The translations under genes and the position numbers were made by a program. A stretch of DNA of 46,487 nt. Origin: an uncultured Methanosarcinales archaeon (lineage in GTDB: Archaea; Halobacteriota; Methanosarcinia; Methanosarcinales; CAZCCY01). Position 1 is the stretch's first letter; each line of letters opens with the position of its first letter. Shown piece after piece: positions 741-44,200 of this stretch. The DNA lies in contig CAZCCY010000003.1 in the NCBI GenBank assembly GCA_964497545.1, forward strand, positions 1 to 46,487. The letters are read 5' to 3'. The notes beneath the pieces were generated by a model that was given only the letters and a program-made list of their open reading frames with translations, made no database searches and had not been told where the DNA came from.

Positions 741-1508
741 TCAGGATTCTGCAATGGCCTTCTTAACTTCATTCAATATCTCGGTTCTCACCTCCTCTAC
801 CGGTCTTGACCCGTCTACGATTCTAACTGCCGAGGCTCGAAGAGCCGAGGCTGCCGGAGTGTAACTTCGGCTTCTAAAAGGCTGATACTTCGTATCAGGA
901 GACTCGGCTTGGCGATGAGCTTCATTTTTAGAAGGTTTGAAACTTCGTTTCTCCTGCTTTTTGTCCTGTTTCAGATGACCCAGCAGATTGAAAATGGCTC
1001 TTACCTCTGCCAGGTATTTCTCTCTCTCAAATTCATTGGGCGGCTCATTTCTATTTTTTATCCGGCGGACAGCTTCGCCAGGTGTTATATCCAGTATTAT
1101 TGTCAGGTCTGGCCTGGGCGCGATTTCCTCATTCTTTCTCTGAATTTCAAAGGGATCAAGTCCCAGGGCCCCCTGGTAGGCAATGTTAGAAAAATAGTAC
1201 CTGTCCATAATAACAATTTTACCGGCATCCAGGGCAGGCCTAATATTCTTTTTAACATCCTCCATCCTGTCCTTTAAAAACAATTCAAACTCTTCTTGTG
1301 GAGAGATGTTTTCCCGTCCTTTTAAGGCTATTTCCCGTATTTTATCCCCATATATGCTGTTGCCTGGCTCTTTCAGCCGGAGGACAGGGTAACCTTCCTT
1401 TTTAAGAGATTCTTCTAGCAGGACGGCCTGGGTTGTTTTGCCTGCTCCATCTATACCTTCAATAGCAACGAGAAATCCCTTAGACAGTTTGTTTGGGATA
1501 AGGATCAT
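741..1508 (-). CDS. tmk: Thymidylate kinase carrying a ~48-codon in-frame insertion near the C-terminus
   Basis: P-loop 'VAIEGIDGAGKTTQ', 'DRYYFS' and the conserved tail 'VRIVDGSRPVEEV'. At 255 aa it is longer than the usual ~200 aa because of the repeat element at 821-971. Confidence 0.9.
   Translation of the reverse strand: MILIPNKLSKGFLVAIEGIDGAGKTTQAVLLEESLKKEGYPVLRLKEPGNSIYGDKIREIALKGRENISPQEEFELFLKDRMEDVKKNIRPALDAGKIVIMDRYYFSNIAYQGALGLDPFEIQRKNEEIAPRPDLTIILDITPGEAVRRIKNRNEPPNEFEREKYLAEVRAIFNLLGHLKQDKKQEKRSFKPSKNEAHRQAESPDTKYQPFRSRSYTPAASALRASAVRIVDGSRPVEEVRTEILNEVKKAIAES
821..971. repeat. Multi-hairpin repeat element, copy A (in-frame inside tmk)
   Basis: Consecutive hairpins: GGCTC-GAA-GAGCC (834-846), GCCGGAGT-GTA-ACTTCGGC (853-871), CTGATAC-TTC-GTATCAG (882-898) and GAAAC-TTC-GTTTC (939-951). 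The 51-nt core 821-871 matches 37856-37906 at 40/51 positions. Confidence 0.65.
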
Positions 1509-4207: not shown

Positions 4208-4828
4208 CTAGTTTAAAGAATCCTTGATTTCCTTGATTCTCCCGTTATCAACCACAAAATATCCATCCCGCGTTATTTTCACGACATCAATCCCATCTCC
4301 GGAGGCAGCATCCCTCTTCATGGCATTGTGAAGAGCCCGAATTGCAAGCTCAACGCCTTCCTCCATCTCGATGTCAGGGTGGTACCTGTCCTCCAGCACA
4401 CCATAGGCAATAGGCGAGCCAGAGCCGGTAGCTACAGCCTTCCGCTCCTCAATCTGCCCTCCAATGGCATCAAGAGAATAAACAGCCGGGCCGTTTTTAT
4501 CCACACCGCCCACAAGGAGCTGGACAAAAAAAGGATAAAAGCGAGAACTGTTAAGGATGTTGGAGAGCAGCGAAGAAATGCCACGAACAGTCATCGGCTC
4601 CTGCCTCCGCATCCTGTAGAGCTTAGACTCGACCTGCATCCACTTTGCAAGCCGCTGCGCATCCCCCACAGAACCGGCAGTAGTCATACCCACACACTCG
4701 TCAATCTGATAGATCTTCATGGCATCCCTGCTGGCAATAAAATGCCCCATAGTAGCCCGCTTCTCAGACGCGAGCACCACACCGTCCTTGCAAATCATCC
4801 CAATGGTGGTAGTTCCCTTAAACTTCAT
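4208..4828 (-). CDS. psmB: Proteasome subunit beta
   Basis: Short propeptide followed by the catalytic '[19 protein letters not shown]'; 206 aa. Confidence 0.9.
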
Positions 4829-16288: not shown

Positions 16289-16597
16289 ATGTATCTGCGA
16301 TACATCTTCTCATTATTGGCACCTGCCCCATTGATCTTTGCACAAGTTGCAGAGGCCCTGGTTCTGCAGGGTGGCCAGGGGACATTTAAAACCAGGCCAA
16401 GGGTCGCGGTGGCAGCATACCACACACCTGTCCAGGCGATGGAGGTCTCCACCTGCCTGACAAAAATGGGATACCAGCCGGGAATAGAGTACGCCCGCTC
16501 AGGCGTCTACCGGGCCATGCAGGACCATGTGCCCATCATCTACGGTGGCGTCTCAGGGAGAGGAGGATTAGGGCCAGGATTGTTAGGGGGGCTGTGA
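16289..16597 (+). CDS. Orphan ORF of uncertain reality
   Basis: Coding-like GC content but no recognisable motif. The last 60 nt are antisense to the C-terminus of the convergent DUF3344 gene. Confidence 0.2.
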   Translation: MYLRYIFSLLAPAPLIFAQVAEALVLQGGQGTFKTRPRVAVAAYHTPVQAMEVSTCLTKMGYQPGIEYARSGVYRAMQDHVPIIYGGVSGRGGLGPGLLGGL

Positions 16598-17432
16598 AAC
16601 CTGGTGTTTTTGAGGGAGAGGTGTGTTTCACTGTCAGGAAGGCGTTGCTGACCACCATGTAGTCTCCGTTGTCCTTGATTCGGATGATGTTTTCTCCTTT
16701 TTTCAGGTAGGGTTTAACGTCTCTTGTGTCGATTGCCAGGTCAGGATAGGGTTTGCCCTGGTAGACCTGGTTCCAGGTTTTTTTGTTGAAATAGAGGGTG
16801 TTTTTACCCTTGTTGCCGCCTGCCACCACGGTGGTGAGTGTGGCTTTTTCTGCCTTGTCAGGGATGTTGTTGAAGCGGATTTCGGTGGTTGTGTTTTTTA
16901 TGCCCTGGAAAGCGTAAATCATGTCTGCCCCCTCGGCGAGCCAGTACTCAGTGTCTCCCTGGTAGACCAGGAGGAGTCCCATCCCGTTTATGGCGAAGTT
17001 GCCCTGGCCTGTGTTTTTTACCATGGCTGTGCAGTCTTTTTTGGTTACAAGGCCTGTGACGTTGTAGGCGTAGGTGCCGCTGGGGTAGTTGTAGGGGTCT
17101 TCTCCTTTCTGGTCGGTGTATTTTCTCTCGGGTGTGAGCAGTTTTCCCTGGAAGGTTGTTTCCATGGATGGGTTTACTCCCTGGTCTCCCTGGTGGCTCC
17201 AGGTCCAGTAGAGGTAGAGTCTTGCAAGTTTTATTTCACCCTCTCTGGGGAGGGTGAATTTCACGGTGTAGCTATCGCCTGGTGCCAGCTCGCCGCTGTA
17301 GGTGCTGTTTCCTATGGTGAAAACAGGCTCGCCTTTCCCGTGCTGGTAGGTTTCGAGCCGGTCTCCGGTGTAGGATGCTAGGGCGGGGGGTGTCAGGATG
17401 AGTGCCAGTGCGAGTGCTGCTATGATTTTCAT
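16536..17432 (-). CDS. Secreted DUF3344-like protein (single B-type domain) with PGF-CTERM sorting signal
   Basis: Signal peptide 'MKIIAALALALILTPPALA'. Blocks 'GNSTYSGEL', 'IKLARLYLYWTWSH', 'YPSGTYAYNVTGLV' and 'EYWLAEGADM' are shared with the paralogues. C-terminal 'PGFTAPLTILALILLSLRRHRR'. Confidence 0.8.
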   Translation of the reverse strand: MKIIAALALALILTPPALASYTGDRLETYQHGKGEPVFTIGNSTYSGELAPGDSYTVKFTLPREGEIKLARLYLYWTWSHQGDQGVNPSMETTFQGKLLTPERKYTDQKGEDPYNYPSGTYAYNVTGLVTKKDCTAMVKNTGQGNFAINGMGLLLVYQGDTEYWLAEGADMIYAFQGIKNTTTEIRFNNIPDKAEKATLTTVVAGGNKGKNTLYFNKKTWNQVYQGKPYPDLAIDTRDVKPYLKKGENIIRIKDNGDYMVVSNAFLTVKHTSPSKTPGFTAPLTILALILLSLRRHRR

Positions 17433-17462
17433 CTTTTCTCTCTCTTTTTTTAGGAGGAAACC

Positions 17463-17480
17463 GGGGGGGAGACCCCCCCC
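17463..17480. other. G7-AGA-C8 homopolymer hairpin between two genes of the DUF3344 array
   Basis: GGGGGGG-AGA-CCCCCCCC read directly. It lies 3 nt after the stop of the 79-aa ORF and 30 nt before the start at 17432. Confidence 0.5.
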
Positions 17481-17483
17481 ATT

Positions 17484-17723
17484 TTATGGCTTTCTTTTGA
17501 TGGGTGATATTTTACCGGGTGTGATGTCTATGGTGGCTATTTTTGTCACCCCATGGGTTTTGTTGCTGATTAGGGTCACTGGCTCCTGGGCATGTTCGTT
17601 GGATTGTAGCTGTGGGAGTGTCATTGCCAGTGCTGCTACCAGGGCCAGTGCCAGGGCGATTGCCTTCCACCTGCGTGCCTCCATTTCGGCTTTGTTGAGA
17701 CTCTCTGTTTCAGTATTTGGCAT
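17484..17723 (-). CDS. Small signal-anchored protein (79 aa)
   Basis: One TM segment 'WKAIALALALVAALAMTL'. It overlaps the end of the 807-aa gene by 14 nt and is co-oriented within the array. No family was recognised. Confidence 0.35.
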   Translation of the reverse strand: MPNTETESLNKAEMEARRWKAIALALALVAALAMTLPQLQSNEHAQEPVTLISNKTHGVTKIATIDITPGKISPIKRKP

Positions 17724-20133
17724 AGATGTTGTACCTCCCTTTCTCCATTTCCAGTGCGAAGCTCCCGTCGCTGTGTGTCATTGTGATGTAGACCCGTTCT
17801 TCGTCTGTGTCCTGTTGTCCATTGTCGTTGGCATCGTAGTATCCCACGTTGGTCAGGTATTCCTGGGTTTTGTGGGTGAAGGGGTCTGTGAGGTTCAGTT
17901 TTAGCTCGATGCTTGTGGTTTTTATTTTTGTCCAGTCCCATTCTGAGGGGTCTGTGGTGGCGTTTATCCCGTAGACTTCTATGTTGGGTGCTTCCCGTTT
18001 CCCGGCGACCTGGTTGAATTTGTTGTAGACTGCGAAGAAGAGGGTGCCTGTTGCTGCTCCGTAGCGGCTGTCTGGTACTGTTTTTATGCCGAGCTCGCTC
18101 AGTTCTCCTGGTGTGATGTCTGTGACGCCCAGGTCTGGGAGTTTGGGCTTGGTTTTGAGTATGAGTATGGCGTTGCTTGGTACTATGTAGTCGCCTCTGT
18201 CCTGGATGGCGAGTTTGTTGTTACTGGGCTGGAGGTGGCTGCCCACCTCCCACCGGTCTACCGCGATGAGCTGTCTGGAGGAGGGTGCGTCTGTTGTTCC
18301 GAGGAGGTGGGTGTTAAATGTAACCTTGTTTTTGTCCTGGTCGCCCTTGTCTGCACCCGGGATGACTGTTATGAGTGTGGCGTTTTTCACGGTGTCGAGG
18401 TCCACAGGGCCGTTGAAGTCTATCTGGGTGGTTGCCTGTTCTGGTGGGATGTCTTTTGCGTAGAGCATGTCTGCGCCCTCTGCGAGCCAGTATTCTATCT
18501 CAGTGCTGGTGTCTTCCACCACCACAAGTAGTCCTACCCCGTACATGGCGAAGTTGCCCTCGCCTGTGTTGTTAATGGTTGTGGTGTAATTCCCTTTACC
18601 GGTTACCAGGTCTGTCACATTGTAGGCGTAGGTCCCGCTGGGATAGTCAAAGCTGCCAAAGCCTTTGCTGTCAGAGTATTTCTCCTCTGGCGTGATGGTT
18701 GTCCCGTTGAATTTCACCTCCATCTCTGGATCGGCGCCGGTGTCCTCTTTGTGGCTCCAGCTCCAGTAGAGGTAGAGTCTTGCCAGTTTGATGGTGGCGT
18801 CAGTTTTCAGTTCTGACTCCACGGTGTAGCTGTCACCGTTTGCCAGCTCCCCGCTGTAGGTGCTGTTTCCCAGGGTGAATATTATGTCCCCTTGTATTTT
18901 CTCGTGTCTGTAGATGGTGAGGGGTTTGTCTCCGAAATACCCGTTTTTTGTCACAACCTCGGCGTCTGTGCTGTTCGCATTGTTTGTCTCATTGGATTCC
19001 TCGACCTCTCCCTCTGGGTCTGCTCTGACCTCGAGGAGGTAGGTTCCAGTCCCGGGTGGGTTCCAGGAGAATTCTACCGTGGTGTTTGAGCCTGGGTTCA
19101 GGCCCGGGATTTCCACGGTGTCGGTGGGGTTGCTGTCCACGTAGAGTGTGGCGTTGAAGGCTGTGGCGCTTCTTGTGCCCTGGTTGGCAATTTCAGCTTT
19201 TATGGTGCTGGGGGTGTTGTTGTAGATGAAAGCTGGCAGGCTCAGGTTCCCCACGGTGAGGTCTGGTTTCCCTGGTGGTGCGCCTTTTGTCAGTAAAAGC
19301 ACTGCAATTACCGGGTGCAGGCTTGTCCCGCTCCCCCGGTCAAACACCAGGGTGTTACTGGACGAAGCGAGTTTGTCTGTGACATCCCAGCTGTCCAGGT
19401 CAAAGTAGCTTCCCTGGTCTGCTTTTGCAGCGTCTGTGGCGATGGTGTTCCCGTTAAGGGTGAGGGTGTCGTCATCGCCTTTTTTGCTTGCAATGTATGC
19501 TGTCCAGAGGGTGGCGGTGCTACTGGTGTCGATTGTGCCCTGGAAGGCTGTGGAGGCTGTGTCTTTCGGGGTCTTGTGGTTGGGGTTCTCGTTCCCCTCG
19601 TTTATCCAGTACTCTATCTCCTCCCCGGTGGGGTCATTGTAGGCTGCTACAAGCACCATGCCATAGACCCGGCCGTCGATGTCTCCGCTGGTTGTGGCGG
19701 TCGCGGTATTCGAGCCTTCTTTGATTTTGTCGGTTACATTGTAGGCTGTCCAGTAGACGCCATAGCCTGACACGTAGACGTTGGGGTTTGTGTCGGCTTG
19801 ACCTCCGAGGTTTAAGGTTCCGAGGTCGTTGCTGTTAAAGGTTGTCTGAAGTGTACCGGTGTACTCAGGGTTGCCGCCCCAGACCCCCACGTAGAGTCTT
19901 GCGTATTTGATGCTGGATGGCACGTTGTTGAAGGTCTGAGTGTAGGGAGAGGATTTCAGGCCGTGTCCGCCGTTGATGTAGATTCCGCCTTTTATGGTTT
20001 CGTGTCTTGTGGTGCTGAGGGGTATGCCGTCGAAATTGTAGATGGCGGATGCTGGTGTTATCAGGAGTATCGCGCAGGATGCGAGCCACGCCATCCCCAC
20101 TATTTTTCTTTTTTTTATTTTTTTGATTTTCAC
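17710..20133 (-). CDS. Large secreted protein: DUF3344 A-type domain, CARDB domain, DUF3344 B-type domain, unknown C-terminal domain
   Basis: Signal peptide '..AWLASCAILLITPASA'. A-domain blocks are 'IKYARLYVGVWGG', 'VYWTAYNVT', 'YGMVLVAAY', 'EYWINEGNE' and 'YFDLDSWDVT'. CARDB block is 'PDLTVGNL...IANQGT...EESNETNN'. B-domain blocks match 16536-17432. The GTG start overlaps the upstream stop (GTGA). Confidence 0.85.
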   Translation of the reverse strand: MKIKKIKKRKIVGMAWLASCAILLITPASAIYNFDGIPLSTTRHETIKGGIYINGGHGLKSSPYTQTFNNVPSSIKYARLYVGVWGGNPEYTGTLQTTFNSNDLGTLNLGGQADTNPNVYVSGYGVYWTAYNVTDKIKEGSNTATATTSGDIDGRVYGMVLVAAYNDPTGEEIEYWINEGNENPNHKTPKDTASTAFQGTIDTSSTATLWTAYIASKKGDDDTLTLNGNTIATDAAKADQGSYFDLDSWDVTDKLASSSNTLVFDRGSGTSLHPVIAVLLLTKGAPPGKPDLTVGNLSLPAFIYNNTPSTIKAEIANQGTRSATAFNATLYVDSNPTDTVEIPGLNPGSNTTVEFSWNPPGTGTYLLEVRADPEGEVEESNETNNANSTDAEVVTKNGYFGDKPLTIYRHEKIQGDIIFTLGNSTYSGELANGDSYTVESELKTDATIKLARLYLYWSWSHKEDTGADPEMEVKFNGTTITPEEKYSDSKGFGSFDYPSGTYAYNVTDLVTGKGNYTTTINNTGEGNFAMYGVGLLVVVEDTSTEIEYWLAEGADMLYAKDIPPEQATTQIDFNGPVDLDTVKNATLITVIPGADKGDQDKNKVTFNTHLLGTTDAPSSRQLIAVDRWEVGSHLQPSNNKLAIQDRGDYIVPSNAILILKTKPKLPDLGVTDITPGELSELGIKTVPDSRYGAATGTLFFAVYNKFNQVAGKREAPNIEVYGINATTDPSEWDWTKIKTTSIELKLNLTDPFTHKTQEYLTNVGYYDANDNGQQDTDEERVYITMTHSDGSFALEMEKGRYNIYAKY

Positions 20134-21884
20134 TGTTTCTCCCTTCTTGTTATTTTTCGTTTTTTCTGGATTATCAGGAAGGCTGAGAGTCCGACAAGCA
20201 TCAGGATGGCGGATGGAAGCTCGGGGACTGGTGCTGGACTTCCTGGGCTTGAGCCCAGTATCAGGAAGGCGTTGCTTGGCACCATGTAGTCGCCCATATC
20301 CAGGACTCCAAGCTTGTTACCGGCTGATTGCACATATGCTAAGACATCGCGGGTGTCCACCGCGGTTGCGGAGGAGTCCAGCACCCCGGTCCAGGCCTGG
20401 TTGTTGAATAAAATCTCGTTTTTATCCTGGTCGCCCTTGTTTGCACTTGGGACAACAGTAATCAGGGTTGCACTCACAAGGTTACCGGGAATCACGTAAC
20501 CATCGAAGTTGATGTAGGTTGTCTGGTCCGGGGCAGTACCATAGCTTGTTTTTGCATAAACTGTGTCCGCACCCTCGGCAATCCAGTATTCCTTCCATTC
20601 TCCATTGGGGTCCTCAAATACGACAAGTAACCCTACTCCATACATGGCGAAGTTGCCCTGACCTGTGTTTTCCACCACGGTTGTGTAGTCTTTTGTGGCT
20701 GTCACAAGGCTTGTGACATCATAAGCATAGGTCCCGCTGGGATAGTCATAGCTGCCGAAGCCTTTGCGGTCATAGTATGTCCTATCCGGGGTAAGGGCGT
20801 TCCCGTCAAATTTTACTTCCATTTGGGGCTGGGTGACGCCCTGGCTCCCCTGGTGGCTCCAGCTCCAGTAGAGGTAGAGTCGTGCCAGCTTAACCGTGGA
20901 GCCAGAGGGAACATCCACATGGGATGTCACGGTGTAGGTGTCACCATTTGACATCTCCCCGCTGTAGCTGCCTCCAACGGTGTAGTTGAGACTTCCTTTT
21001 ACACTGTCGTGTCTGTAGATGGCCAGCGGCCTGTCAGCGAAATACCCGTTTTTCTCTTTCTTGGTGATTGCAAGCACTGCAAGTACCGGGTGAAGATGGG
21101 AATCGCTCCCCCTGTCAAACACCAGCGTGTTACTGGACGAAGTGAGTTTGCCTGTGACATCCCAGCTGTCCAGGTCGAAGTAGCCTCCTTGGTCTGCGGC
21201 TGCAGCGTCTGTGGCAATGAGGTTCCCGTTGAGGGTGAGGGTGTCACCATCCCCGCTTCCTCCTGCTAGGTAGGATGTCCAGAGTGTGGCGTTTTCCACC
21301 CCGGTGAGGTTAACTGTGCCATTGAAATAGCTGTCTGCTGTGTCTTTTCCAGAATGGAGATGCTCGTTACCCTCGTTTATCCAGTATTCCACAAGCGGCT
21401 GGCTCTGGTCCTCGTAGACTGCTACAAGCACCATGCCATAGACCCGGCCGTCAATGTCTCCACTGGTGGTGGCAGTTGCTGTGTTCGAGCCTGTGTTAAC
21501 CATGCCGGTCACATCATAGGCTGCCCAATAGACGCCGAATGCTGAGACATATACATTGAGGTTGGTGTCGGCTTGACCTCCGAGGTTTAAGGTTCCCAGG
21601 TCCTGGCCATTAAAGGTTGTCTGGAGTGTACCGGTGTACTCAGGCTTGCCGCCCCAGACTCCCACGTAGAGTCTTGCATATCTGATGTTGGATGGAACAT
21701 CGTTGAAGGTCTGAGTGTAAGGTGGATATGCCAGACCGTGGCCACCACTGACGTAGATTCCGCCTGCAAGGGTTTCGTGTCGTATGTTTTTCAGTTCGAA
21801 TCCATCTACATTGTAGTTTGCCGATACTGGTATTGCCAGGAGAACGAGCACTCCCACCAGTCCTATCCACATACATGTTCTCAT
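20130..21884 (-). CDS. Secreted DUF3344 protein (A-type plus B-type domains) with a PEF/PGF-like C-terminal membrane anchor
   Basis: Signal peptide 'MRTCMWIGLVGVLVLLAIPVSA'. It shares the A and B blocks of the 807-aa paralogue. The tail is 'SPAPVPELPSAILMLVGLSAFLIIQKKRK'. GGAGG lies 7 nt upstream of the ATG. Confidence 0.85.
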   Translation of the reverse strand: MRTCMWIGLVGVLVLLAIPVSANYNVDGFELKNIRHETLAGGIYVSGGHGLAYPPYTQTFNDVPSNIRYARLYVGVWGGKPEYTGTLQTTFNGQDLGTLNLGGQADTNLNVYVSAFGVYWAAYDVTGMVNTGSNTATATTSGDIDGRVYGMVLVAVYEDQSQPLVEYWINEGNEHLHSGKDTADSYFNGTVNLTGVENATLWTSYLAGGSGDGDTLTLNGNLIATDAAAADQGGYFDLDSWDVTGKLTSSSNTLVFDRGSDSHLHPVLAVLAITKKEKNGYFADRPLAIYRHDSVKGSLNYTVGGSYSGEMSNGDTYTVTSHVDVPSGSTVKLARLYLYWSWSHQGSQGVTQPQMEVKFDGNALTPDRTYYDRKGFGSYDYPSGTYAYDVTSLVTATKDYTTVVENTGQGNFAMYGVGLLVVFEDPNGEWKEYWIAEGADTVYAKTSYGTAPDQTTYINFDGYVIPGNLVSATLITVVPSANKGDQDKNEILFNNQAWTGVLDSSATAVDTRDVLAYVQSAGNKLGVLDMGDYMVPSNAFLILGSSPGSPAPVPELPSAILMLVGLSAFLIIQKKRKITRREKQ

Positions 21885-21980
21885 ACTTTTCCTCCATATT
21901 ACTCCTATTTAGTAATACTAATTCTCGTGTAGATAGAATTTAAACTACATAAATGTTTCTTATAATCAGAAATTTTAAGT

Positions 21981-22006
21981 AAAAAAAACAAAAATTTAAT
22001 AAAAAA
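21981..22006 (-). terminator. Oligo-T tracts (T8, T6 on the coding strand) after the S-component gene
   Basis: Plus-strand A8 (21981-21988) and A6 (22001-22006) lie downstream of the stop at 22027-22029. AT-rich promoter-like DNA for the next gene follows. Confidence 0.35.
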
Positions 22007-22026
22007 TACTATTTTTTCTTTGTATT

Positions 22027-23097
22027 TCATATTGTTGCTTTTCGCATCTTCCGGGCGATATCATACCCAATGTAACCGCCAATAACACCCCCCAGAGCGG
22101 CAATGCCAACCTCGCTCCAGGCATACCAGGGAGCATAATACACCTTCCACACCGCAGGAGCAAAAAGAAAATAAAACGTCCAGTACGAAAACCCACCCCT
22201 GACAACACCATAAATAATAGACGTCCCCCGTTTATCCCCATAATCCCGGAACAACATCACAAGCACATCCACAATCACACCCTCACCCATGTACCACCCA
22301 AGCCAGAGAGTGACATTAGTCCCCCACACCACCATCGCCACAAGCTCCACCACAGTGAAAAGCAGGGTGGCTGTCCCAGGCTTCCTCACCAGCTGAAGCG
22401 CAACTATCAACACCACCGTGGTAGGAATCGTGAAGAGAAGCCCGCCCAGCGGGCCCAGCAGGTCATTAAAGGTCTGCCAGAACCACCGGAACACCACCCC
22501 AATAAGAGCGGCAAGAAGCGCCAGGGTAACCAGGTCAATGGTGGTAAACCACTCAAGCAACCTGAGCCTCCGGGACACCAGAAACACAACCAACACAATA
22601 AGAAAACTGGCAACCAGACTCCCGTAGGTCACCCAGGAAGGAGGCGGCACAACCTCCACCTCATGGATGTAACTCTCCCTCCTAACACCACCACCATCAG
22701 AATAACTCACATTCACCCGGAAGCTCACACTCTTCCTGAACTCCACAGACTCAGGCGGCTTAACCGAGAAAACAAAAGAACTAGAATCCCCTGGCCCCAG
22801 GACATCAATAACAGCCTTCACCCTTCCACCCTCCACCCAGGTCTCGGTCTCCTGGCCAGGAACCTCAACATCCATACCAGACGGGACATCCACACTCACC
22901 CTGACATCCCGCAAAGGCGTCTCACCATTGTTGGTCAGGGTGACCCTCGCCCTCTCATGCCAGGTGACACCTGCCACCAGCCTGTCAGATTCATAGATGT
23001 CCTTGTTCTTCACAGGTATGGTCATCCCCACCTCCAGCCCGCCCACTGCCAGACAGGCAAGGAGAATGATAACCAGGACAAAAAGGGAGCGCCTCAT
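22027..23097 (-). CDS. YkoE-like ECF transporter S component with an N-terminal signal peptide and beta-sandwich ectodomain
   Basis: The C-terminal ~190 aa are multi-TM: 'TTIDLVTLALLAALIGVVF...LVRKPGTATLLFTVVELV...', resembling the YkoE / ABC_cobalt-type S-component pattern. The N-terminal ~160 aa are 'VTLTNNGETPLRDVRVSVDVPSG...'. An ATGA overlap couples it to the upstream gene. Confidence 0.65.
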   Translation of the reverse strand: MRRSLFVLVIILLACLAVGGLEVGMTIPVKNKDIYESDRLVAGVTWHERARVTLTNNGETPLRDVRVSVDVPSGMDVEVPGQETETWVEGGRVKAVIDVLGPGDSSSFVFSVKPPESVEFRKSVSFRVNVSYSDGGGVRRESYIHEVEVVPPPSWVTYGSLVASFLIVLVVFLVSRRLRLLEWFTTIDLVTLALLAALIGVVFRWFWQTFNDLLGPLGGLLFTIPTTVVLIVALQLVRKPGTATLLFTVVELVAMVVWGTNVTLWLGWYMGEGVIVDVLVMLFRDYGDKRGTSIIYGVVRGGFSYWTFYFLFAPAVWKVYYAPWYAWSEVGIAALGGVIGGYIGYDIARKMRKATI

Positions 23098-24008
23098 CTC
23101 CTACGCCTCAACCGATAAAAGAAAAACACGACACTGGCCACCAGCACCACAATTACCGGCATCGGGACAGTAGCCCTCCCAGGGCCAACCTGCCCACCCA
23201 GCCTGAGATAATCCTCCCCCTGGTCATAGAGGTACTCCACCGCCAGAACCGCGTTGAAAGGATGAATATATGCCTCCTCACCCCGCTCAAACCTCAAGGT
23301 GTTATTCAAACCCACCAGGCCTGTCACATCCCACCTGTCCAGGTCAAAATACGCCCCGGACTTCGCCCTACCCACATCCTCTCCCAGAAGCTGGGAGTTA
23401 AAATAGAGACGATCCTCCTCACCCTTGTTCCCCGCTATTAAAACCGTCCAGAGAGTGGCATTTTTTATTTCAAGGGAGGTGGCATTGAAGACAACACTGG
23501 TACTATCCCTGGTCTGACGGGCAAGAGCCTGGTTCCCCTCTGCTATCCAGAACTCGGTCTGAGGCATGCTAGAATTCCGATAAACAGCAACAAGGACAAT
23601 ACCATAGGGGGCACCATTCAGATTATGATACCTCACCGAGACCCTGTTCACACCCTCTGATAGCATGCCGGTGACATTGTAGACATAACATGCAACACCC
23701 CAGGCTGCCAGATAATCAGGAGAACTCCGCCTCCCAAGAGTCCTGTTATTGATGCTCACCTCAAGCCAGTCATCCCTGTTGTAATTCCACATCGGCACAT
23801 AGAGCCTGGCATACTCTATCCTGGAGGGCAAGTCAAAATACTCCTCATAAGGGTTTTCATGGGTGTAACCATGGCCACCCCCCACAAACACGCCCCCATG
23901 CACCCTGCCCTCAGCCACAACATAGAGGGGTGTCCCCTCCCCCCTCCACTCACCCCCACTTGCAACCGGGACAAAAAGAAGAAGGACAAAAAGAAGGACA
24001 ACCCTCAT
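23094..24008 (-). CDS. DUF3344-like (A-type) extracytoplasmic protein with a C-terminal TM anchor, embedded in the ECF operon
   Basis: Signal peptide 'MRVVLLFVLLLFVPVASG'. Blocks are 'IEYARLYVPMWN', 'CYVYNVTG', 'YGIVLVAVY', 'EFWIAEGNQ' and 'YFDLDRWDVT'. The tail is 'VPMPVIVVLVASVVFFFYRLRRRR'. ATGA overlaps occur at both ends. Confidence 0.8.
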   Translation of the reverse strand: MRVVLLFVLLLFVPVASGGEWRGEGTPLYVVAEGRVHGGVFVGGGHGYTHENPYEEYFDLPSRIEYARLYVPMWNYNRDDWLEVSINNRTLGRRSSPDYLAAWGVACYVYNVTGMLSEGVNRVSVRYHNLNGAPYGIVLVAVYRNSSMPQTEFWIAEGNQALARQTRDSTSVVFNATSLEIKNATLWTVLIAGNKGEEDRLYFNSQLLGEDVGRAKSGAYFDLDRWDVTGLVGLNNTLRFERGEEAYIHPFNAVLAVEYLYDQGEDYLRLGGQVGPGRATVPMPVIVVLVASVVFFFYRLRRRR

Positions 24009-36670: not shown

Positions 36671-37246
36671 ATGCGTAGACACTTAGTGCAGAATGTAGGA
36701 TTAAATATTTTATCAGACCATATTTGGTTTACCATTTTTTGGACACTCCCTTATCTGGTGAAAGCAGAGCTTGAAGTTGACCAACAGGCAATTGAAAAGG
36801 AACGTGAAAAACTAGGACGATTCATTCTGGCAACCAACGACCCTGACCTCACAGGCGATGAAATCCTGTCACACTACAAAAGTCAGAGTAAGATAGAACG
36901 TGGATTCAGGTTTCTGAAAGACAAAAGTTTCCATGTTTCAGAGGTCTACCTGAAAAAAGAAAGCCGGATTGAAGCATTAACCATGATAATGGTCCTATGC
37001 CTCTTCCTTTATTCAATTGCTCAATGGATGTTAAGAAATAGACTTAAAGAGACAAACAAATTTGTCAGAAACCAGGTAAAGAAACCTATACAGAACCCCA
37101 CAATGAGATGGATATTTTTCCTGTTCAGAAGGATCACAGAAGTAACAATCCACAATGGTAAAACCGTTAAAAAGAAAGTGGCAAATATGACCGAGGAGTT
37201 ATGGGATATTCTGAGTCTGGCGAGGGCGAAAGCCCGAGCCAGTTGA
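36671..37246 (+). mobile_element. C-terminal fragment of an IS1634/IS4-like DDE transposase (relic)
   Basis: 'LGRFILATNDPDLTGDEILSHYKSQSKIERGFRFLKDKSF' is the typical C-terminal YK..ER..FR.LK block. The N-terminal ~2/3 of a transposase is missing, and no terminal inverted repeats were identified. Confidence 0.6.
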
Positions 37247-37262
37247 TACGAAGTATCAACCT
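37215..37262. repeat. Multi-hairpin repeat element, partial copy C (inverted relative to copy A)
   Basis: GGGC-GAAA-GCCC (37224-37235) and GTTGATAC-GAA-GTATCAAC (37242-37260). 'aagcccgagccagttgatacgaagtatcaacc' resembles the reverse complement of 879-912 in copy A. Confidence 0.45.
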
Positions 37263-37322
37263 GATGGGAAAAGAATGCAAAAAATATTATGTTTGAAAAA
37301 AGACATGCGGAAAGTCAGATAT

Positions 37323-38627
37323 ATGATTAAAGCGGTAATTCTTGCAGCAGGTCGGGGCACCCGGATGGGGCCTTTAACCCAGCACAGGCCAAAACCAATG
37401 CTACCCCTGGCAAACACACCCCTGCTTGGCCATATTGTCCAGGCTCTCAAAAAGGCAGGGCTGAGAGAGCTTCTAGTGGTCATCGGCTATAAGGCCGAGA
37501 AAATCCAGGAATATCTGGGCGATGGGGGTAGATTCGGGGTCAGGGTGGAATACCTCCACCAGCGGGAACAGCTTGGGACGGCCTATGCCATCGCCCAGGC
37601 AGAAAAATATGTGGACGGCCCATTTCTGGCACTCAACGGGGACGTCCTTCTGGGCGAAAAAGACCTTAAACTGATGTTAGGCCATTTAAAGGACCTGGAA
37701 GAAAAAACCGTAATCGGAGCAGTAGAGAAACAGGACCCAAGAAACTATGGTGTGATGGAGGTAAAAAACGGTAAAATAACAGGAATCCTGGAAAAACCAG
37801 AACCTTACAGTCTCGATAAACCCCTTGAAGGGCTTCCAGGTTTTGATAAATCCTTTTCTAAATGCCGAGACTCGAAGAGTCGAGGCTGCTGGAACGAAGT
37901 TCCAGCTGGATTTATGGTTAACACTGGTGTCTATCTTTTCACCCCCGGGGTCTTCCAGGCTATCCGGGACACTCCGAAGTCCAGCCGGGGCGAATATGAG
38001 ATTACAACTTCTCTTCAGATTTTAATCGACACTGGCAGTGAGGTGGTTTTCCAGAGGCTAGAGGGCTGGAGGGATCTTACCTATCCCTGGGACCTCCTGG
38101 ATGTGAATCAGCAGTTGTTGGCCGCGGACTCTTTTGGACATGAGGTTAAGGGTACCGTTGAACCTTACACTACTCTGAAAGGGAAAGTGGTGGTCGGTGA
38201 GGGGACTGTTATCCGGAGCGGGGCATATATCCTGGGTCCTGTTGTTATTGGCAGGAACTGTGATATTGGGCCTAATTGTTTCATTCGTCCTTATACTGCT
38301 ATTGGGGATGGTGTGCGGATCGGTAATGCGGTGGAGGTAAAGAATAGCATAATAATGGAGAACACGAAAATCGGTCATTTGAGCTATGTGGGAGACAGTG
38401 TTATTGCTGCGGATTGTAACTTTGGGGCTGGCACTAAAATCGCGAATTTGAGACACGATGGCAGGACTATCAGAGTAAAAATAAATAACAAAATTTTGGA
38501 TTCAAAACGGAGAAAGCTGGGGGCGATAATAGGGGATCATGTTCACACCGGTATTAACAGTATGATTAATGTGGGGGCTGTGCTTGAAAGTGGTAGCTGG
38601 CTTTTGCCAGGGGAGTTCTACAGATGA
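37323..38627 (+). CDS. Archaeal GlmU-like sugar-1-phosphate nucleotidyltransferase / left-handed beta-helix acyltransferase, with a 36-codon in-frame insertion
   Basis: 'AVILAAGRGTRMGPLT..PKPMLPL' nucleotidyltransferase motif, with hexapeptide repeats in the C-terminal third. An extra segment sits between 'GILEKPE' and 'FMVNTGVYLF'. Confidence 0.8.
   Translation: MIKAVILAAGRGTRMGPLTQHRPKPMLPLANTPLLGHIVQALKKAGLRELLVVIGYKAEKIQEYLGDGGRFGVRVEYLHQREQLGTAYAIAQAEKYVDGPFLALNGDVLLGEKDLKLMLGHLKDLEEKTVIGAVEKQDPRNYGVMEVKNGKITGILEKPEPYSLDKPLEGLPGFDKSFSKCRDSKSRGCWNEVPAGFMVNTGVYLFTPGVFQAIRDTPKSSRGEYEITTSLQILIDTGSEVVFQRLEGWRDLTYPWDLLDVNQQLLAADSFGHEVKGTVEPYTTLKGKVVVGEGTVIRSGAYILGPVVIGRNCDIGPNCFIRPYTAIGDGVRIGNAVEVKNSIIMENTKIGHLSYVGDSVIAADCNFGAGTKIANLRHDGRTIRVKINNKILDSKRRKLGAIIGDHVHTGINSMINVGAVLESGSWLLPGEFYR
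37803..37910. repeat. Multi-hairpin repeat element, copy B (in-frame inside the GlmU-like gene)
   Basis: GACTC-GAA-GAGTC (37869-37881) and GCTGGAAC-GAA-GTTCCAGC (37888-37906). The core 37856-37906 matches 821-871 at 40/51 positions with compensatory stem changes. Confidence 0.65.
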
Positions 38628-39037: not shown

Positions 39038-39292
39038 ATGCCGACAGAGGCATTACCCTTGTATGCAGGGGAGTACCCGGCCGTGCAGAGAATAACAATA
39101 AGACTCCCGGAACAACAATTAAAAATGATCGAAATGCTGGTGGAATTTGGCGAATTTCCCTCAATAAGCGAGGCAATCAGGGCGGCAGTAAGAGACCTAA
39201 TCGATCAAAGAAGCGAAAAACTGGTCGGGAGAATGACCTTGTTCGAAAAGACGCAGGCTCAAAGTAAAAGCTACCTGCGACTGAACAAATAA
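39038..39292 (+). CDS. cdrS: Ribbon-helix-helix (CopG-like) protein, CdrS-like by sequence type and position upstream of ftsZ
   Basis: 'RITIRLPEQQLKMIEMLVEFGEFPSISEAIRAAVRDLI' is an RHH beta-alpha-alpha pattern. It lies 56 nt upstream of ftsZ on the same strand. Confidence 0.65.
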   Translation: MPTEALPLYAGEYPAVQRITIRLPEQQLKMIEMLVEFGEFPSISEAIRAAVRDLIDQRSEKLVGRMTLFEKTQAQSKSYLRLNK

Positions 39293-39348
39293 AAAAAATA
39301 TGTCTAGACAAGACCTAGAATCGAAATTCTAGGGGAAATCTAGAGGGG

Positions 39349-40452
39349 ATGAGTGAAATGGAAACATTTGTGCAGGATGCCCTTAAGTATACGGAAAAAG
39401 AGAGGTCGTATCGCCAGGCAACTGGCGCAGGCGAGATGGAAGAGTTCGGAACACCCCAAATCGTCGTGGTGGGATGCGGAGGTGGCGGAAGTAACACCAT
39501 CCGACGCCTTTACAACATAGGGGTTTCAGGAGCAGAAACCATAGCCATCAACACCGACAAAATACACCTAGACCAAATACAGGCAGACAAAAAGATACTC
39601 ATTGGCAAATCCATAACCCGGGGCCTGGGAGCAGGCGGCTACCCCGATGTAGGAAGAAGAGCAGCAGAGCTGGCAAGAGGGACACTGGAAGAGGTGCTGA
39701 AAAACAAAGACCTGGTATTCATCACCGCAGGCATGGGCGGAGGTACCGGAACCGGCACCGCCCCAGTAGTAGCCGAGATAGCCAAGGAACAGGGAGCAAT
39801 AGTAATCGCAATGGTGACAAGCCCCTTCCGGGTAGAGCGAGCCCGGCTGGTCAAGGCAGAAGAAGGCCTGGAAGAACTCCGCAAAACCGCAGACACCGTG
39901 ATAGTCCTGGACAACAACAGGCTCCTGGAATACGTGCCAAGCCTGCCCATAGACAAAGCCTTCAGCGTGATGGACCAGCTAATAGCCGAAACCGTGAAAG
40001 GAATCGCAGAAACCATAACCCAACCCTCCCTCATAAACCTCGACTACGCAGACGTCAGAACCATCATGCGAGGTGGCGGCCTGGCAGTAATGCTGGTAGG
40101 CGAGGCAAAAGGCCAGGACAAAGCAACCGAGGTAGTACGCAACGCCCTCAACCACCCCCTCCTCGACATAGACACCCGCAACGCCACCGGATGCCTCCTC
40201 CACATCACCGGCGGAACCGACATGTCCCTCCACGAGGCAGAAGAAATCGCAGCCTCCCTAACCTACGAACTCGACCCAGAAGCCAACATCATCTGGGGGG
40301 CAAGAATCAAAAAAGACTACGAAGGCAAAGTACGCTGCCTAGCAATAATGACCGGCATCCAGTCAGCCCAGGTGATAGGACCAGAAAAAATAAAAACCGG
40401 ACAAAGACAACAACTAGAAGCCATACCATCAGGGATAGACTACATAAAATAA
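39349..40452 (+). CDS. ftsZ: Cell division GTPase FtsZ (FtsZ2-type inferred from cdrS linkage)
   Basis: '[11 protein letters not shown]' and the tubulin signature '[13 protein letters not shown]'; 367 aa. Confidence 0.92.
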
Positions 40453-40478: not shown

Positions 40479-40535
40479 TTCTATTTTTTAATCAGGCTCT
40501 CCCCGGTCATCTCCACAGGCTTTTCCAGGCCCAAC
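40479..40535. repeat. 57-bp direct repeat, left copy (attL-like)
   Basis: Identical to 42635-42691: ttctattttttaatcaggctctccccggtcatctccacaggcttttccaggcccaac. Confidence 0.85.
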
Positions 40536-40612
40536 GGTTCTACCATGATGGGAGCAACGTCTCTATTTTTGGAACTATTATCGCTTTAGCTTGCGGTTCC
40601 AGGATTGTCCCA
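40481..40612 (-). pseudogene. Displaced 3'-terminal remnant of gpmI
   Basis: The minus strand reads '[26 protein letters not shown]', against '[26 protein letters not shown]' in the intact gene. Beyond the 57-bp identity the match drops to 19/27. An 11-nt match (tagcttgcggt) to 42884-42894 then implies an internal deletion. Confidence 0.65.
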
Positions 40613-42634: not shown

Positions 42635-42691
42635 TTCTATTTTTTAATCAGGCTCTCCCCGGTCATCTCCACAGGCTTTTCCAGGCCCAAC
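42635..42691. repeat. 57-bp direct repeat, right copy (attR-like; includes the gpmI stop and last 17 codons)
   Basis: Identical to 40479-40535. Confidence 0.85.
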
Positions 42692-44109
42692 AGTTCCAGC
42701 ATGGTAGGTGCAACATCTGCGAGAATCCCGTCTCCCCGAAGCTCCACACCCCCAACCGTCACAAGGAAAGGCACAGGATTGCCTGTGTGAGCCGTATGCG
42801 GTGTTGAGTTGTCATACATCTGCTCCGCATTCCCATGGTCCCCGGTCAAAAACATCACACCACCTATCTCCTCTAGCTTGCGGTGAATCCTGCCAATACA
42901 TGCATCCACAGTTTCAACAGCCTTAACCGCAGCAGCATAAACCCCGGTATGCCCCACCATGTCCAGGTTAGCGAAATTGAGAATCACAACATCATAATTC
43001 TCCATTATCTCAAGGAGTCTGGATGTCACAAGTGGGGCGCTCATCTCAGGCTTGAGGTCATAGGTTGCAACCTTGGGAGACGGAATAAGAACCCTATCCT
43101 CCCCAGGGTTAGCCTCCTCGACACCCCCATTAAAAAAGAAGGTAACATGGGCATATTTCTCAGTCTCAGCTATCCGAAGCTGCCTGAGACCCTGCTGGCT
43201 TAACACCTCTCCCAGGGTGTTCTTTATCCTGTGGGGTGGAAAAGCAACCCCAGCATTAATCTTCCGGTCATACTGGGTCATGCAGACAAAATAGACCCTG
43301 GGATGGACCTGCCGGGGGAAATAAGGGAAATCCAGGTCGGTGAAGGCCCGGGTGAGCTGGCGGGCACGGTCAGCCCGAAAATTGAAAAAAACCACCGAAT
43401 CCCCACTCCTTATAGTCCTGCCTGTAACCACAGTGGGCTTCACAAACTCGTCAGTCTCGCCCAACCGGTAGGCGGTTTCAACAGCCTCCACAGCACTCCC
43501 ACATTTTCTCCCCGCTGCCAGGGTCAGGGCATCGTAGGCAAGCCTGGTGCGCTCCCACCTCCGATCCCGGTCCATCGCATAATACCTCCCACTCACCGTG
43601 GCAATCTCACACCTCCTCTCAAGCTCCCGGATAAAACCAAGACCACTTTTGGGCGGGGTATCCCTCCCGTCCAGAAAAGCATGGACACAAACATCATTTA
43701 CACCATTAAACCTGGCCATCTCTAGCAGAGCGTGGAGGTGGTTAATGTGGCTGTGAACACCTCCATCCGAGACAAGGCCCATCAGATGAAGCGAAGAGCC
43801 AGAACGCTTCACATTTTCCAGGGCCTCCAGGAGCACCGGGTTCCGATAGAAACTCCCATCCTGGATGGCCAGGTCTATCCTGGGAAGTTCCTGAAGGACA
43901 ACCCTACCCGCGCCCAGGTTGAGATGACCCACCTCAGAGTTACCCATCTGACCCTCAGGCAGCCCAACAGCACTACCGGACGCCTTCAGGGTGGTATAGG
44001 GGTATTCCCGGAAAAGCCGGTCAAAGTTCGGGGTGTGAGCGTTTTTAATGGCGTTCCCCCTGGTCTCTCTGCTGCAACCAAAACCATCCAGAATCGCAAG
44101 CAAAATCAT
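42637..44109 (-). CDS. gpmI: 2,3-bisphosphoglycerate-independent phosphoglycerate mutase
   Basis: 'ILDGFG', '[15 protein letters not shown]', 'SDGGVHSH' and 'TGDHGNAE' iPGM motifs. The ATG at 44109 is preferred over the GTG at 44118. Confidence 0.9.
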
Positions 44110-44200
44110 CACACCCACACTATCAGGGGTTAAACTCCATGAATCTATCGAAAAACACGGAAAAAGGATTTAAACACCCCCGGTCCATTCTACCCTTTTA

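Follow-up and report, generated by a model that had tools for sequence, protein, structure and literature searches.

The 46,487-nucleotide stretch of DNA analysed here (contig CAZCCY010000003.1 of assembly GCA_964497545.1, from an uncultured Methanosarcinales archaeon; the whole stretch is called the window below) carries a GlmU-like nucleotidyltransferase gene whose coding sequence is lengthened by an in-frame, hairpin-rich segment of 96 nt. This segment is probably a copy of a lineage-specific, non-autonomous palindromic repeat that is tolerated in frame in protein loops and is analogous to the Rickettsia palindromic elements (RPE) and to the M. jannaschii palindromic repetitive elements (MJRE). 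The basic unit of the element measures approximately 44-47 nt. Within 37 kb, no fewer than three unrelated genes contain it, namely the GlmU-like gene, the thymidylate kinase gene tmk and a transposase fragment of an insertion sequence (IS) of the IS1634 family, and it is absent from the homologues of all three. The reading frame is kept in the two housekeeping enzymes and broken in the transposase pseudogene.

The insert in the GlmU-like gene

The features of this gene are the following.
37323..38627, + strand: GlmU-like host gene, encoding a protein of 434 aa (P0001) with Pfam domains NTP_transferase and Hexapep and a match to ST0452 (2ggo/5z09)
37803..37898, + strand: insert of 31-32 codons (PYSLDKPLEGLPGFDKSFSKCRDSKSRGCWN(E)) between EKPE and VPAGFMVNTG, with an uncertain 3' boundary
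37803..37855, + strand: degenerate 5' half of the insert, seen in the fold results and missed by the covariance model of the unit at E<=10
37864..37886, + strand: hairpin A, GCC/GA/GACTC/GAA/GAGTC/GA/GGC, located by descriptor scan
37888..37906, + strand: hairpin B, GCTGGAAC-GAA-GTTCCAGC, with an 8-bp stem and a GAA triloop

The GlmU-like open reading frame (ORF) spans 37275..38627 (+) and the called protein P0001 begins at 37323. By its sequence, P0001 is a bifunctional sugar-1-phosphate nucleotidylyltransferase/acetyltransferase of the GlmU/ST0452 type. It shares 55-60% identity with 13 aligned homologues (from Methanoperedens, Methanosarcina, ANME-type and uncultured archaea), and every invariant residue of the family is kept in the resulting 14-sequence alignment. 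In this alignment, 32 residues between EKP(E) and (V)PAGFMVNTG are unique to P0001. The spacing from the EKP anchor to N-x-G is 8 residues in 119 of 119 other homologues (the anchor reads EKL or EKS in five of them) and 40 residues in P0001. The initial annotation, made from the letters of the DNA, had proposed that an insertion of 36 codons splits the nucleotidyltransferase domain; the insertion itself was confirmed, with a length of 31-32 codons, and the comparison with GlmU-like orthologues, ST0452 included, revealed no equivalent loop in any of them.

Structural data place the extra segment in the same position. The match to the ST0452 structure is split in two, residues 3-160 of the query corresponding to 2-149 of the chain and residues 192-430 to 149-386, and the in silico deletion of the 32 residues raises the Pfam NTP_transferase score from 153.7 to 164.7 bits. 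In an AlphaFold2 model, residues 159-196 of P0001 have a predicted local distance difference test value (pLDDT) below 50 and the flanking strands (151-156 and 198-206) are confident, so that the insert is predicted to be a disordered loop. P0001 has a second insertion relative to all 13 aligned homologues, consisting of the four residues KDLE (37689-37700, residues about 123-126), with which no hairpin is associated.

The two hairpins of the 3' half, GACTC-GAA-GAGTC at 37869-37881 (the inner part of hairpin A) and hairpin B, were found exactly as they had been annotated. The sequence EVPAG at the end of the 36 annotated codons pairs with EIPPS of ST0452, which leaves the codons 37803-37895 or 37803-37898 as the extra segment. 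Since EVPAG is aligned to host residues, the 3' arm of hairpin B overlaps host-aligned codons and the boundary is uncertain by about 3-5 codons. In the 5' half, CCCT-TGA-AGGG forms one weak hairpin around 37822-37832 and GGTTTT-GAT-AAATCC a second one around 37839-37853; the linker CCTTTTCTAAAT (37852-37863) also starts there. A linker of the TTCTAAA type recurs at 37856 in the GlmU-like gene and, in the tmk insert, at 872 and, reversed, at 927. Demonstrable homology to the tmk copy is limited to the 3' half of the GlmU insert, 37856-37908.

Copies in tmk and in an IS1634 transposase fragment

The following features were recognised in and around the other two copies.
741..1508, - strand: tmk gene, which translates the reverse complement of the unit at 827..873
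831..965, - strand: whole tmk insertion, approximately 45-49 codons (DKKQEK...ALRAS), recognised against Pfam Thymidylate_kin, with a third GAA hairpin at 939-951 (-)
827..873, + strand: tmk unit homologous to the GlmU unit, with hairpin A at 829-851 and hairpin B at 853-871 (unit model 69.2 bits)
879..928, - strand: second, inverted tmk unit (unit model 21.3 bits, E = 0.006), with an inverted-repeat match to 37234-37262
36671..37246, + strand: 5'-truncated IS1634-family DDE transposase fragment, host of the third copy (Pfam DDE_Tnp_1 and the source names of its homologues)
37217..37260, + strand: third copy, an insert of 44 nt (empty-site comparison, fold z-score -4.2, unit model 60.3 bits)

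The 47-nt GlmU unit (37862-37908), composed of hairpin A and hairpin B, is homologous to positions 827-873 in tmk. Between 821-854 and 37856-37889, 31 of 34 nucleotides are identical (E = 4e-7 within the window, blastn-short). The core GCCGAGRCTCGAAGAGYCGAGGCTGC is confined in the window to 829-854 and 37864-37889, both on the + strand, with 0.00 occurrences expected from 100 dinucleotide shuffles. The homology to the tmk hairpins, already stated in the initial annotation, is borne out by these figures, and the similarity to 821-871 was significant against a shuffled background, a test that had been set beforehand. Hairpin A differs between the two genes by a single compensatory change of a G:C to an A:T pair. 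In hairpin B, which reads GCCGGAGT-GTA-ACTTCGGC in tmk (853-871), three stem pairs differ from the GlmU copy and each of them is changed on both sides. The homology extends through hairpin B by structure rather than by sequence.

The tmk insertion also lies within a conserved gene. With the insert present, the Thymidylate_kin match ends at profile position 165 of 185; once 45 residues are removed the coverage is 1-185 and the score rises from 160.3 to 171.4 bits. Moreover, the tmk protein of the window has 255 aa, compared with 195-236 aa in solved thymidylate kinases. In the inverted unit at 879-928 hairpin A is decayed and hairpin B is intact (CTGATAC-GAA-GTATCAG at 882-898). The tmk insert is thus a composite, made up of units in both orientations and of one more GAA hairpin (939-951).

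In both places it is the + strand that carries the homologous DNA. Since tmk is encoded by the - strand and the GlmU-like gene by the + strand, the two genes translate opposite strands of the element, as had been claimed. The peptides derived from the shared DNA, CRDSKSRGC in GlmU and AASALRASA in tmk, are indeed unrelated. Several reading frames are open on both strands of the element. The peptide of the tmk insert had 0 matches among 1.84 billion representative proteins in an exhaustive HMMER search, and a word-indexed protein search with the concatenated GlmU and tmk insert peptides gave no candidate.

Upstream of tmk there is an intergenic hairpin with an 8-bp stem, GCCGATAT-GAT-ATATCGGC (1520-1538, +), located 12 nt from the start codon. 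It has the outer GCCG/CGGC stem of tmk hairpin B (18.7 bits, E = 0.02 with the unit model) and may be either a solo copy of hairpin B or an unrelated regulatory hairpin. It is followed by another hairpin, ATTTCC-ATGCTAC-GGAAAT, at 1549-1567.

The third copy consists of exactly one hairpin A (CTGGC/GA/GGGC/GAAA/GCCC/GA/GCCAG) and one hairpin B (GTTGATAC-GAA-GTATCAAC), placed at the 3' end of the transposase fragment. A repeat search of the window had recovered part of it, 37234-37262, as an inverted match to 879-907. Homologous IS copies on three other archaeal contigs (L021, L024 and L025), with transposases 80-84% identical, have no insert. Their empty sites read ...GGGATATT(C/T)T(A/G)(A/G)GT(C/A/T)TGATGGG... 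and the filled site in the window reads GAGT|CTGGCGAGGGCGAAAGCCCGAGCCAGTTGATACGAAGTATCAAC|CTGATGGG. This comparison gives the 44-nt copy exact boundaries: it starts with CTGGCGAG and ends with GTATCAAC, without a terminal inverted repeat. The trinucleotide CTG occurs at both junctions and can equally be read as the first bases of the outer stem of hairpin A. The left junction, AGT|CT, is shared with the GlmU copy under one choice of its boundary, which makes two cases only. The length of the copy is not a multiple of 3 and it adds a TGA stop to the transposase frame. As the insert is missing from three homologous IS copies, the IS1634 element is the target and not the source of the repeat. For the same reason, the end of the IS1634 element was rejected as the parent of a miniature inverted-repeat transposable element (MITE), the hairpins being missing from the three homologous IS ends.

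The region of the transposase fragment, 36671-37275, is located between an ornithine carbamoyltransferase (argF-type) gene and the GlmU-like gene. The assembly of two sister contigs is interrupted at the IS fragment: the end of L020 (37225) falls inside the third copy, and the start of L001 (37192) a little upstream of it. This suggests that the IS, the hairpins or both are repeated in the genome or hinder assembly. On L021, a contig of 39% GC, the hairpin TTGA/GA/CTGGAA/GGGTA/TTCCAG/GA/TCAA (2406-2434, -), about 340 nt downstream of the IS1634 transposase, has the outer-stem/GA/inner-stem/GA architecture of hairpin A and was missed by the unit model.

Fold of the unit and its possible origin

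Hairpin A begins with 3-5 bp of outer stem, followed by a symmetric internal loop of tandem G·A (GA/GA) and by 4-5 bp of inner stem; its terminal loop is GAA or GAAA, with C-G as the closing pair. Hairpin B starts 0-1 nt after it and has a stem of 7-8 bp with a G-N-A triloop. A descriptor scan for the architecture of hairpin A found three sites in the window (829-851, 37217-37242 and 37864-37886, all on the + strand) against 0.045 expected from 200 shuffles. Six hairpins in the 46.5-kb window combine a GAA or TTC triloop with 5 bp or more of perfect stem, the shuffle mean being 1.25, and all six fall in 834-951 (inside tmk), 37242-37260 and 37869-37906. The units occur singly in the IS copy (44 nt), after a degenerate segment in GlmU (96 nt) and in mixed orientation in tmk (approximately 135-147 nt). 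A possible internal inverted repeat of the tmk copy, identical at 9 of 10 positions (GCCGAGGCTC at 829 and GAGACTCGGC at 898-907), belongs to the hairpin-A motif.

In the alignment of four units, 88% of the cells at paired positions hold standard pairs, compared with 20-42% in controls with the partners displaced by 1-3 columns. Changes on both sides are seen in eight pairs; six of these are among the eight pairs of hairpin B, where 96.9% of the cells are paired. The fold z-scores of the elements range from -2.0 to -4.3. With a covariance model of the unit, three copies reach 60-69 bits and the fourth, decayed unit 21.3 bits (E = 0.006). The paired changes by which the stems differ between copies indicate that it is the fold, and not the sequence, that is maintained by the element family. 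It had been argued from the start that selection acts on nucleic-acid structure rather than on the peptide, and this is favoured by the paired stem changes, by the tmk peptide being without relatives and by the predicted disorder of the GlmU insert. Most plausibly the conservation of the fold reflects the propagation needs of the element family or the self-correction of palindromes; it need not imply a role of the hairpins in the GlmU or tmk transcripts.

The three loci, with four units, were found in 55.7 kb (the window and 9.2 kb of extra flank). In contigs of the JGI samples 3300023440 and 3300023442, which elsewhere diverge from the window by 0.04-0.45%, the elements are identical, and the inserts are therefore real and stably present in the sampled population. 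No unit was found with the descriptor scan and the covariance model in 60.6 kb of four related contigs (L021, L024, L025 and L030), which include that of the nearest GlmU homologue, of the same GC content. Plasmid and phage collections gave no match, and Rfam gave none at the gathering score across the window and none on the element at E<=10. The matches obtained with CCGAGNCTCGAAGAGNCGAGGC belong to unrelated bacteria and viruses and to one intergenic hairpin of an Altiarchaeota. The latter, at 4675-4725 of JBDRCA010000051.1 (L003, from a Candidatus Altiarchaeota metagenome-assembled genome), contains a 24-nt GCCGAGACTCGAAGAGTCGAGGCT identical to GlmU hairpin A, tandem G·A included; another hairpin follows it and a tRNA-like GGTTCGAAGCCC arm lies about 80 nt downstream. 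This match could be due to chance or to an unrelated structured RNA.

It seems unlikely to us that the hairpins are functional cis-elements of their host transcripts, retained for RNA processing or stability, ribosome pausing or protein binding. GAAA belongs to the GNRA tetraloops, and RNA structures commonly include tandem G·A pairs; together with the stability of the hairpins (z-scores -2 to -4) and their maintenance by compensatory change, this would agree with such a role. However, the homologous unit is sense in the GlmU mRNA and antisense in the tmk mRNA, where the loops turn into UUC or UAC and the G·A pairs into U·C or C·U mismatches. In addition, the third copy sits inside a truncated transposase pseudogene, no Rfam family was found even at E<=10, and the site is needed by 0 of the 119 homologues. 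In DNA, unusual stability is a property of GCGNAGC/GCGNNAGC mini-hairpins and of d(GNA) loops with a closing C-G pair (PMC13037366, PMC3201870). The C-GAA-G and GC-GAAA-GC loops and the tandem G·A of the present unit are features of such DNA mini-hairpins. They are found on one strand only, which is the mRNA strand in GlmU and not in tmk, and this argues against a role at the mRNA level.

We also find it rather improbable that the palindromes were made locally and independently at each site, by template switching during replication or by fold-back repair (quasi-palindrome formation). The perfectly complementary stems and the lack of terminal inverted repeats and of clear target-site duplications are compatible with this process, as is the fact that the 3' arm of GlmU hairpin B overlaps EVPAG (EIPPS in ST0452) as if it had been copied from the flank. 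Nevertheless independent events would not yield a shared block of 31/34 nt, nor two hairpins built alike at three unrelated loci, with the G·A positions and the GAA loops in common. Moreover, the 44-nt insert of the IS copy comprises every arm of its two hairpins, and no part of it repeats the flank in inverted form.

The data are very hard to reconcile with an ordinary protein loop, specific to the lineage and selected at the protein level, in which the DNA palindromes would be incidental. An intact frame and a segment that does not vary between the assemblies of both samples are what such a loop would show, but the same DNA occurs in tmk on the other strand, with an unrelated peptide, and the tmk and IS copies effectively refute this explanation. 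Furthermore the GlmU insert is predicted to be disordered, the tmk insert peptide (the one tested) is without relatives, and the palindrome statistics are far from chance. Least credible of all is the excision of the segment from the RNA, as an intron of the archaeal bulge-helix-bulge type or as some other element, so that it would never be present in the protein: archaea do splice some mRNAs at bulge-helix-bulge motifs and the segment is rich in hairpins, but two of the inserts are in frame and stop-free, which removal from the RNA would not require, and no hBHBh' motif spanning any of the three inserts was found (0.1-0.7 per region in shuffles).

Several points weigh against the interpretation of these segments as copies of a mobile palindromic repeat. 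The evidence is limited to three loci and four recognisable units. Four sequences are few for covariation, and intrastrand repair can also keep palindromes complementary. That all three hairpins A are on the + strand lacks statistical meaning. The boundaries of the GlmU and tmk inserts cannot be fixed without a close orthologue bearing the empty site, and part of GlmU hairpin B could be host sequence, EVPAG being aligned to the host. The element has no terminal inverted repeats and no clear target-site duplication, and no candidate mobilising gene (HUH/Y1 or TnpB) was found in 56 kb (the window and the 9.2-kb flank). In addition, the exact-pattern scans of GTDB genomes, JGI metagenome contigs and IMG/VR with CCGAGNCTCGAAGAGNCGAGGC returned only chance palindromes, the source organism being outside these collections.

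If the segments are copies of such a repeat, insertion would be indifferent to the reading frame and purifying selection would filter the copies afterwards. The survivors in essential enzymes would be only those copies that are in frame, free of stops and placed in surface loops, and in a truncated transposase a copy with a frameshift and a stop codon would be tolerated. Since several frames are open on both strands of the element, survival in frame is likely. The insert peptide would be merely a tolerated linker. With lower confidence we suggest that the fold would matter in single-stranded DNA, and that the unit would owe its mobility to a hairpin-specific enzyme from elsewhere in the genome, by analogy with the HUH/Y1 transposases that mobilise repetitive extragenic palindromes (REP), bacterial interspersed mosaic elements (BIME) and IS200/IS605 derivatives. 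GC skew was uninformative for relating the element strand to the direction of replication. We are tempted to go further, in a tentative way, and to suggest that the 44-nt unit may be an undescribed, ultra-small mobile module of uncultured Methanosarcinales-related (ANME-2-like) archaea, based on single-stranded DNA mini-hairpins and forming mixed-orientation arrays in ORFs, with a hairpin-specific enzyme, of a type not yet linked to such archaeal elements, that would copy or insert it. If this were true, the mini-hairpin module would generate new protein loops in this archaeal lineage.

Relation to known repeats and other features of the window

To our knowledge, good documentation of in-frame selfish palindromes is restricted to one methanogen and a few bacteria with an obligate intracellular life, and the combination of a tandem G·A hairpin with a G-N-A triloop hairpin is not known from MJRE. 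RPE were reportedly described by Ogata et al. in 2000 and 2002. MJRE, palindromic repetitive elements of M. jannaschii which have coding potential and are fused into protein genes, are said to have been described by Suyama, Lathe and Bork in 2005 (FEBS Lett 579:5281).

The closest known kind of element is the protein-coding palindromic repeat represented by RPE and MJRE. In-frame palindromic repeats occur in Rickettsia, Wolbachia and M. jannaschii and typically lie in non-structured protein segments; RPE are inserted in many housekeeping genes of Rickettsia, and RPE-1, for instance, sits in that of guanylate kinase, whose product is translated and enzymatically active (PMC2229807, PMC2996958, PMC10969869). 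The palindromes of Rickettsia and Wolbachia are, like the present ones, short hairpin repeats in frame in housekeeping genes, and RPE, too, lie in surface or non-structured segments, are missing from orthologues, seem to leave the gene functional and have no known transposase (PMC2229807, PMC10969869, PMC2996958). Guanylate kinase as a host can be set beside the thymidylate kinase and the nucleotidyltransferase of the window. Nevertheless there are clear differences. RPE are single long stem-loops of 105-150 bp with terminal inverted repeats of about 12 bp (PMC2229807, PMC10969869), whereas the present unit has 44-47 nt, two short hairpins and no such repeats. The RPE families each encode a conserved peptide (PMC2229807, PMC10969869), and the present in-frame copies are translated from opposite strands into unrelated peptides. 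There is no sequence similarity between RPE and the present element, and the host here is an archaeon. MJRE (cited in PMC2229807, PMC2996958) are likewise archaeal palindromic repeats within protein genes, but they belong to a different archaeal order and, as far as we can tell, their sequence is unrelated.

REP, BIME and REPIN sequences (mobilised by RAYT transposases of the HUH/Y1 type) are also very short imperfect palindromes, single or in mixed-orientation clusters with short linkers. These sequences and the palindrome-associated transposable elements (PATE) resemble the present element in having no terminal inverted repeats; they also lack target-site duplications, and their hairpins are believed to act in single-stranded DNA. 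Hairpin-ended non-coding derivatives do exist in archaea, where PATE are derived from IS200/IS605 (IS1341-type) elements (PMC3119063). However, REP, BIME and PATE are extragenic, whereas all three present copies are inside ORFs; the element cannot be filed with REP or PATE, its copies being intragenic. Moreover, no RAYT, TnpA or TnpB gene was seen in 56 kb, and no conserved 5' tetranucleotide such as GTAG is evident in the element.

Classical MITEs (Correia/NEMIS, ERIC, RUP and the Sulfolobus SM elements) are likewise small, non-autonomous and multi-copy, and are sometimes found in frame in ORFs, including transposase genes (PMC2229807). They have terminal inverted repeats matching those of a parent IS, as well as target-site duplications, and the 44-nt copy with exact boundaries has no terminal inverted repeats and no clear target-site duplication. 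A classical MITE was rejected, as terminal inverted repeats are lacking and the only IS of the window, of the IS1634 family, carries the element as an insertion and so is not its parent.

A case in an uncultured, Methanosarcinales-related archaeon of the methane-cycle type would show that the phenomenon is broader than the known examples. It would also constitute a natural experiment: two essential enzymes tolerate the translation of the same DNA from one strand or the other, and the only survivor with a frameshift and a stop is found in a dead transposase. The exact bounds of the 44-nt copy and the covarying stems point to recognition of a single-stranded DNA hairpin. There is also a practical warning, as such inserts break assemblies, inflate protein lengths and can pass for lineage-specific domains.

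Elsewhere in the window, four paralogous DUF3344 proteins, one of them also with a CARDB domain, are encoded at 16536-24008 (-). Their many internal direct repeats (families D1-D15) are 72-94% identical to the reference copies, and the cluster, which adjoins a CbiQ/ABC (ECF-type) transporter, probably represents a diversifying family of cell-surface proteins. A direct repeat of 84 nt with 92% identity occurs at 40479-40562 and 42635-42718. One copy forms the 3' end of the gene for phosphoglycerate mutase (iPGM), 42637..44118 (-); the other is intergenic, just downstream of ftsZ, and looks like a duplicated fragment of the gene end. Finally, a perfect 8-bp hairpin, CCTAGAAT-CGAA-ATTCTAGG (39314-39333), is placed between an RHH-domain gene, which ends at 39292, and ftsZ, which starts at 39349, and may be a terminator or an operator.

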